Shown piece by piece: positions 48,941 through 49,385 of a DNA stretch of 64,000 bases. Position numbers and translations under genes: made by a program. How positions within the stretch are numbered: position 1 is the first letter of the stretch; the number at the start of each line of letters is the position of its first letter. The notes under the pieces are model-generated. The model had not been told where the DNA came from and ran no database searches. It saw only the letters and a list, made by a program, of their open reading frames with translations. This stretch comes from Escherichia coli (lineage in GTDB: Bacteria; Pseudomonadota; Gammaproteobacteria; Enterobacterales; Enterobacteriaceae): the NCBI RefSeq assembly GCF_041248615.1, contig NZ_CP158426.1; one strand, written 5' to 3'.

Positions 48941-49297
48941 AGTCGCTGCCATTTATTCAGATAAAGAGTGCGTGGATGGTAGCAGAATTTCGCTTTGCTT
49001 ACCGCCTGTTGTTAAGTGATTTGATCGATGGTTGTTAATGATGTCAACGATGGCGCAAAAAATGCCCGCTTTTGGTGCGCGCTGCGTCAGAATGGCGCAG
49101 TAATTTCCAGTAAATTTCGTCAATGATCACAATTCCAGAATTATATTTTACTTCTGCATAACATTGCGTTTTTTATTCTTTTTATTCACCCATATCGCAA
49201 ACGTATTCACTTTATATGCACTTTAAATGCATATGGTTTGGTTATAACTCCTTGATTTCCAGTTAGCCACCGCGGTTTATGCACTTTTATCACTGGC

Positions 49298-49313
49298 TGG
49301 CACGAACCCTGCA
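49298..49313 (+). promoter_or_regulatory. Sigma-54 promoter of the ast operon
   Basis: TGGCAC-N5-CTGCA matches the -24/-12 consensus ~75 bp upstream of astC; TGCA-N7-TGCA palindrome upstream could be an ArgR-type site. Confidence 0.55.
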
Positions 49314-49385
49314 ATCTACATTTACAGCGCAAACATTACTTATTATTAACATATAAATAACGAATTATTTACTGTAGAGGTCGCT

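Follow-up and report, generated by a model that had tools for sequence, protein, structure and literature searches.

The spacer between xthA and astC raises the question of whether a sigma-54-like motif upstream of astC is a functional promoter, and which regulators act on it through the surrounding DNA. In the E. coli chromosome this regulatory spacer is 445 bp long and is bounded by two divergent genes, assigned from their open reading frames and the RefSeq annotation: xthA (exonuclease III, 48134-48940, minus strand) and astC (succinylornithine transaminase, 49386-50606, plus strand), the first gene of astCADBE. The operon encodes the arginine succinyltransferase pathway of arginine breakdown. 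A first-pass annotation of the window (the entire 64-kb stretch of DNA analyzed here) had read the motif as the sigma-54 promoter of a nitrogen-regulated ast operon. We are highly confident that 49297-49313 is indeed the sigma-54 (RpoN) promoter of astCADBE, activated by NtrC with ArgR as an accessory factor.

The astC reading frame comprises 406 codons from an ATG at 49386, and its end is overlapped by a second reading frame of 344 codons; astA starts at 50603. The region 48900-49500 is present in 5424 of 5426 complete E. coli genomes, where it carries the RefSeq annotation astC and xthA, and it is 100% identical in strain C4 and others. In K-12 MG1655, the minus-strand gene astC begins at 1831982, the start of xthA is at 1832428, and window positions are converted to K-12 coordinates (NC_000913.3) by subtracting them from 1881368. 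The spacer aligned to that of K-12 without gaps, with four substitutions in 445 bp and none within 49286-49385, leaving the promoter identical. The window as a whole is only partly colinear with K-12. The yeaG sigma-54 promoter, which K-12 coordinates would place about 35 kb away, is missing from the window, and an IS transposase lies near 27.2-27.8 kb.

The sigma-54 binding site, named astCp2 in the literature, is the 17-mer CTGGCACGAACCCTGCA at 49297-49313 on the plus strand. Kiupakis and Reitzer are said to have described astCp2 in 2002 as the promoter of astCADBE in E. coli K-12 that depends on sigma-54 and NtrC. The site consists of a -24 element TGGCAC (49298-49303, with the GG at 49299-49300), the spacer GAACC (49304-49308) and CTGCA (49309-49313, with TGCA at 49310-49313). 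The stretch TGGCACGAACCCTGCA at 49298-49313, for which the first-pass annotation had given the right coordinates, has the GG and GC one helical turn apart as in the pattern TGGCAC-N5-TTGCW, and its sole deviation is a C for T 5' of TGCA. It ends 72 nt ahead of the astC ATG, and the GC of the -12 element (49311-49312) lies 74 nt 5' of the ATG, in agreement with the earlier estimate of about 75 bp.

A search of the 64-kb window for TGGCAC-N5-YTGCW returned two matches, a number that was reached in 3 of 100 shuffled sequences, compared with 0.28 expected. The second match, TGGCACGACAACTGCT at 27480-27495 (plus strand), lies within the transposase of an IS element that is multicopy in some E. coli genomes. 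We rejected it as a promoter: because it is internal to a transposase and absent from the published list of sigma-54 ChIP-seq sites, it is probably a chance occurrence. The astC site, on the other hand, is carried far beyond chance by its position and orientation, by published ChIP-seq and by conservation in 103 of 103 species.

In the sigma-54 ChIP-seq study of Bonocora 2015 (PMC4591121, Table 1), site OS17 has a peak centered at 1830088 with a fold-above-threshold of 7 and the motif CTGGCACGAACCCTGCA. This minus-strand motif is centered at 1830087 (U00096.2), astC is the gene downstream of it, and the distance from the predicted start to the gene is 62 bp. Its PSSM score of 11.294 lies inside the span of scores that the table gives for confirmed sites, and its EcoCyc status is "C" (experimentally confirmed); the study recovered 18 of the 20 promoters that are experimentally confirmed according to EcoCyc (PMC4591121). 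Coordinates in U00096.2 are 1976 lower than in NC_000913.3, an offset that was inferred from the 62-bp distance to astC in the same paper. With this mapping of the published peak, the OS17 motif center falls on 49305, the midpoint of 49297-49313, and the two 17-mers are identical base for base. The comparison with the annotated K-12 ast promoter, which the first-pass annotation had put forward as a check, thus came out positive, and the element is astCp2, a promoter known before. Bonocora 2015 (PMC4591121) predicted that transcription starts 19 bp downstream from the center of the motif. With the center at 49305, the predicted sigma-54 start is therefore 49324 (plus strand), giving a leader of 62 nt.

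Published data also connect NtrC to this spacer. In a gSELEX study both the RpoN holoenzyme and NtrC bound the astC/xthA spacer, and astC was counted among the few RpoN targets experimentally confirmed in RegulonDB. An NtrC ChIP-seq paper lists astCADBE with prior evidence for direct binding, and in the literature astC expression is dominated by NtrC. Two engineering papers made use of astCp2, which they call a weak sigma-54 promoter to which ArgR binds naturally.

Conservation was analyzed in astC loci that were gathered from one genome per species (GTDB r220) using a degenerate pattern for the N-terminal peptide FDEWMxPVY, which covers coding sequence only and contains no promoter information. 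The search yielded loci from 108 enterobacterial species, among them Escherichia, Citrobacter, Enterobacter, Klebsiella, Raoultella, Cedecea, Buttiauxella, Kosakonia, Siccibacter and other genera. The promoter count was restricted to the 103 loci with at least 130 nt of upstream sequence. All 103 contained TGGCA[CT]-N6-TGCA, starting 87-91 nt 5' of the ATG (110 nt in one case). Between the invariant -24 GG and -12 GC elements, 26 distinct six-base spacers were observed, and such variable spacers between otherwise invariant elements argue for selection on the -24/-12 contacts. The site is conserved across enteric bacteria; it is part of ordinary core-genome regulation, as had been proposed. The base 5' of TGCA (49309 here) was C in 66 species and G in 37, and in none of the 103 was it the consensus T; this conserved non-T flank may have to do with why astCp2 is reportedly weak and relies on ArgR.

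Within E. coli, 49286-49335 is identical in 4785 of 5374 genomes. Two variants were inspected (O157:H7 strain 8368 and CUPF09), and in both the changes were confined to bases flanking the elements. In Escherichia albertii NBRC 107761 an ATA codon takes the place of the astC ATG in the alignment, while promoter, Shine-Dalgarno sequence and the remaining coding sequence are intact; a mutated start codon or an error in sequencing could account for this.

The NtrC consensus is TGCACC-N4-TGGTGCA. Two dyads of this type are located on the plus strand in the upstream part of the spacer. Dyad 1, TGCCCGCTTTTGGTGCG at 49063-49079, matches the consensus at 10 of 13 informative positions and is centered at about -253 from the predicted start, whereas dyad 2, TGCGTCAGAATGGCGCA at 49083-49099, scores 10 of 13 on both strands and is centered at about -233. 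An alignment of 98 distinct enterobacterial upstream sequences revealed several conserved blocks. The family consensus of dyad 1 is TGCACCATTTTGGCGCG, with a conserved TGC...GC, and that of dyad 2 is TGCCCCAAAATGGGGCG; in both dyads the outer TGC/GC are at least 95% conserved. Judged by consensus match and conservation, 49063-49079 and 49083-49099 are the putative NtrC boxes. The published NtrC ChIP-seq interval, 1830021-1830101 (U00096.2), corresponds to 49291-49371 in the window and hence covers the promoter and leader, approximately 230 bp from the dyads (49063-49099). This could be explained by cross-linking through a DNA loop or by the resolution of the peak call.

Other elements were observed next to the dyads. 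The block 49111-49149 (TAAATTTCG...TGATCACAATTCCAGAATTATATTTT) is largely at least 95% conserved across the 98 enterobacterial sequences and includes a perfect TCACA, the right half-site of CRP, together with a poor left half. A scan of the spacer with the CRP consensus returned no site of at least 8/10. In Salmonella, a CRP site has been reported for the ast region. A direct repeat at 49100-49114, GTAAT-N5-GTAAA, resembles the CpxR consensus GTAAA-N5-GTAAA and is poorly conserved beyond E. coli. A CpxR site at astCADBE is stated in one paper.

The first-pass annotation had further pointed to a TGCA-N7-TGCA palindrome upstream of the promoter as a potential ArgR-type site. Such a palindrome (TGCACTTTAAATGCA) is present in a single copy near astC, at 49217-49231 (halves 49217-49220 and 49228-49231), although this is outside the range 49250-49385 to which it had been assigned. 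The bare pattern is not enriched, with two occurrences in the window compared with 2.27 expected. The ARG box consensus is wNTGAATwwwwATTCANw, in which TG and CA span 14 bp. In the palindrome this span is 15 bp, one base too long, and hence it is not one clean ARG box; given also the chance frequency of the bare pattern, we rejected it as a single box. According to the literature, the canonical E. coli ArgR site is composed of two 18-bp ARG boxes 3 bp apart. ARG-like boxes are spread over 49153-49243. The palindrome is embedded in a weak ARG-box-like cluster at 49194-49243, which by its box scores and its conservation of position is a probable ArgR-bound region.

Single boxes in this cluster scored 11/16 (49194-49211), 13/16 (49205-49222) and 11-12/16 (49215/6-49232/3), and true ARG boxes scored 11-15 in the same scan. 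At homologous positions in 101 species, boxes of at least 12/16 were found in 91 (49205-49222), 66 (49194-49211) and 32 (49215-49232) species, with a background for such boxes of 0.27% per position. The best pair covers 49205-49243 (23/32), and a second pair covers 49194-49232 (22/32). Both are lower than the operator pairs that were recovered as positive controls, argECBH (28/32) and argR (25/32). Pair hits of at least 22 numbered 46 across the window, eight of them in the 445-bp astC spacer.

These data can be set against the possibility that the palindrome at 49217-49231 is the site of another regulator, for instance a weak NtrC-like 'governor', or has no function at all. TGCAC is also an NtrC half-site, and the chance frequency of the bare pattern, the extra base in the TG-to-CA span and the single-box scores of 11-12/16 all speak for such an interpretation. 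However, a 15-bp dyad does not fit the 17-bp spacing of NtrC sites, and the palindrome sits among ARG-like boxes of conserved position. Moreover, in most species the canonical ARG half-site TGAAT stands in place of its right half, and ATGCA-N7-TGCAT has the geometry of ATTCA-N7-TGAAT that is expected where two boxes meet at a distance of 3 bp. We therefore regard a site unrelated to ArgR as rather unlikely. On sequence grounds, the palindrome would fit better as the inner half-sites of the adjacent boxes 49205-49222 and 49226-49243. ArgR sites at astCADBE are described in the literature, where ArgR is an accessory, non-essential factor in sigma-54-dependent induction. An ArgR-type reading of the palindrome region is accordingly plausible in part: its place in a conserved ARG-box-like cluster and the assistance that ArgR gives to the promoter hold, the palindrome as a box of its own does not.

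Downstream of the predicted start, the AT-rich 5' leader (49324-49385, plus strand) carries a Shine-Dalgarno sequence, GAGG, at 49377-49380, which is conserved along with several other blocks. An RNA element in the leader was considered and rejected. Comparison of the leader with Rfam revealed no family at threshold, the only hit being a sub-threshold mgtC-leader on the opposite strand (21 bits compared with 48, E = 0.088), and its predicted fold was no more stable than that of shuffled sequences (z = +0.83). Right after the -12 element follows ATCTACATTTACAG (49315-49327), which is nearly invariant and mostly at least 95% conserved. The first part of this stretch, TCTACATTT at 49315-49323 (plus strand), abuts the sigma-54 -12 element and resembles KCTAYRCTT, the extended -10 consensus of sigma-S. 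Its resemblance to this consensus suggests that a sigma-S promoter of astC probably overlaps the sigma-54 core. Transcription of astC has been reported to be directly RpoS-dependent. A sigma-70 scan of the spacer gave only two weak hits, as many as shuffled sequence would yield, and neither was usefully placed upstream of astC; the scan is therefore uninformative on the sigma-S promoter.

The RpoS dependence of astC bears on two further explanations. One could argue that the -24/-12 motif is a chance look-alike without any role and that ast is driven only by a sigma-S- or sigma-70-type promoter, the more so as the match in the transposase demonstrates that look-alikes do occur. Yet sigma-54 occupies exactly this 17-mer in vivo according to published data, the -24/-12 elements are invariant around a variable spacer in 103 species, and both NtrC binding and NtrC-dominated expression have been published; the probability of a mere look-alike is practically nil. 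Another explanation grants the site a dual role: sigma-54 holoenzyme positioned over TCTACATTT would gate, or compete with, initiation by sigma-S, so that each starvation input would partly exclude the other. The -12 element directly adjoins the sigma-S-like -10, conservation is at least 95% for both, and transcription of astC has been reported for both sigma factors. Repression by sigma-54 at overlapping promoters is mentioned for other loci in PMC4591121, with reference to earlier work. However, the sigma-S -10 is a candidate proposed from a consensus, and the conserved 3' block could simply be the region of melting and initiation for sigma-54, which makes such gating improbable. We consider it slightly less probable still that the -12 element and the abutting TCTACATTT form a conserved dual-sigma core, in which a sigma-54 site deliberately weakened by the lack of the consensus T 5' of TGCA lets sigma-54 closed complexes and sigma-S holoenzyme compete. 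If so, nitrogen and stationary-phase signals would be arbitrated at a single 30-bp element; Kiupakis and Reitzer (2002) may have set out much of this idea before.

The preferred explanation, an NtrC-activated sigma-54 promoter assisted by ArgR, draws on the sequence itself, which is identical to a site reported as occupied by sigma-54 in vivo, on the NtrC binding published for the spacer and on the deep conservation. Sigma-54 RNA polymerase would bind the -24 GG and -12 GC at 49297-49313 and form a closed complex. Under nitrogen limitation, phosphorylated NtrC would occupy the two dyads at about -233 and -253 and, by looping of the DNA, contact the polymerase; ATP hydrolysis would then open the promoter, with a predicted start near 49324. 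Arginine-bound ArgR would be placed between enhancer and promoter on the weak ARG-like boxes (about -130 to -81), where it presumably acts as an accessory and probably architectural factor that bends the intervening DNA and thereby raises induction. The start site and the NtrC and ArgR boxes are given here as predicted positions, and the looping or bending role of ArgR is likewise a proposed one. A probable sigma-S promoter overlapping the same core may provide transcription in stationary phase. Three observations stand against this explanation: the -12 element reads CTGCA and not TTGCA, in a promoter that is reportedly weak; the published NtrC ChIP interval is on the promoter and not on the dyads about 230 bp upstream; and true repressor operators reach higher scores than the ARG-like boxes.

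The significance of the site beyond its annotation is small. A sequence-only reading had correctly recognized a textbook NtrC/sigma-54 promoter. Two by-products result from the analysis. One is a footprint of the ast control region over 103 species, comprising the -24/-12 elements, the NtrC dyads, the ARG-like cluster and the block 49111-49149; the other is the observation that none of these species has the consensus T in the -12 flank.

Compared with astCp2 of K-12, the window has the same 17-mer, the same distance to astC, the divergent xthA and a 445-bp spacer whose four substitutions are outside the promoter. Nothing substantive differs, and the window represents another E. coli strain. 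With promoters of the glnAp2/glnHp2 type the astC promoter shares the -24/-12 core and tandem upstream NtrC dyads. However, its enhancer is more distant (about -233 and -253), and a C or G replaces the consensus T 5' of TGCA throughout the 103 species. Akin to glnHp2, it has a presumably DNA-bending accessory factor between the enhancer and a weak promoter, which is arginine-bound ArgR at astC and IHF at glnHp2. The canonical ArgR operators of argECBH and argR share AT-rich half-sites of the TGAAT/TGCAT type and the 21-bp register with the astC region. In comparison to these operators, which score 25-28, the ARG-like pair at astC is weaker (23/32), and whereas the canonical operators overlap a sigma-70 promoter and repress it, the probable ArgR region of astC lies upstream of its promoter and acts positively.
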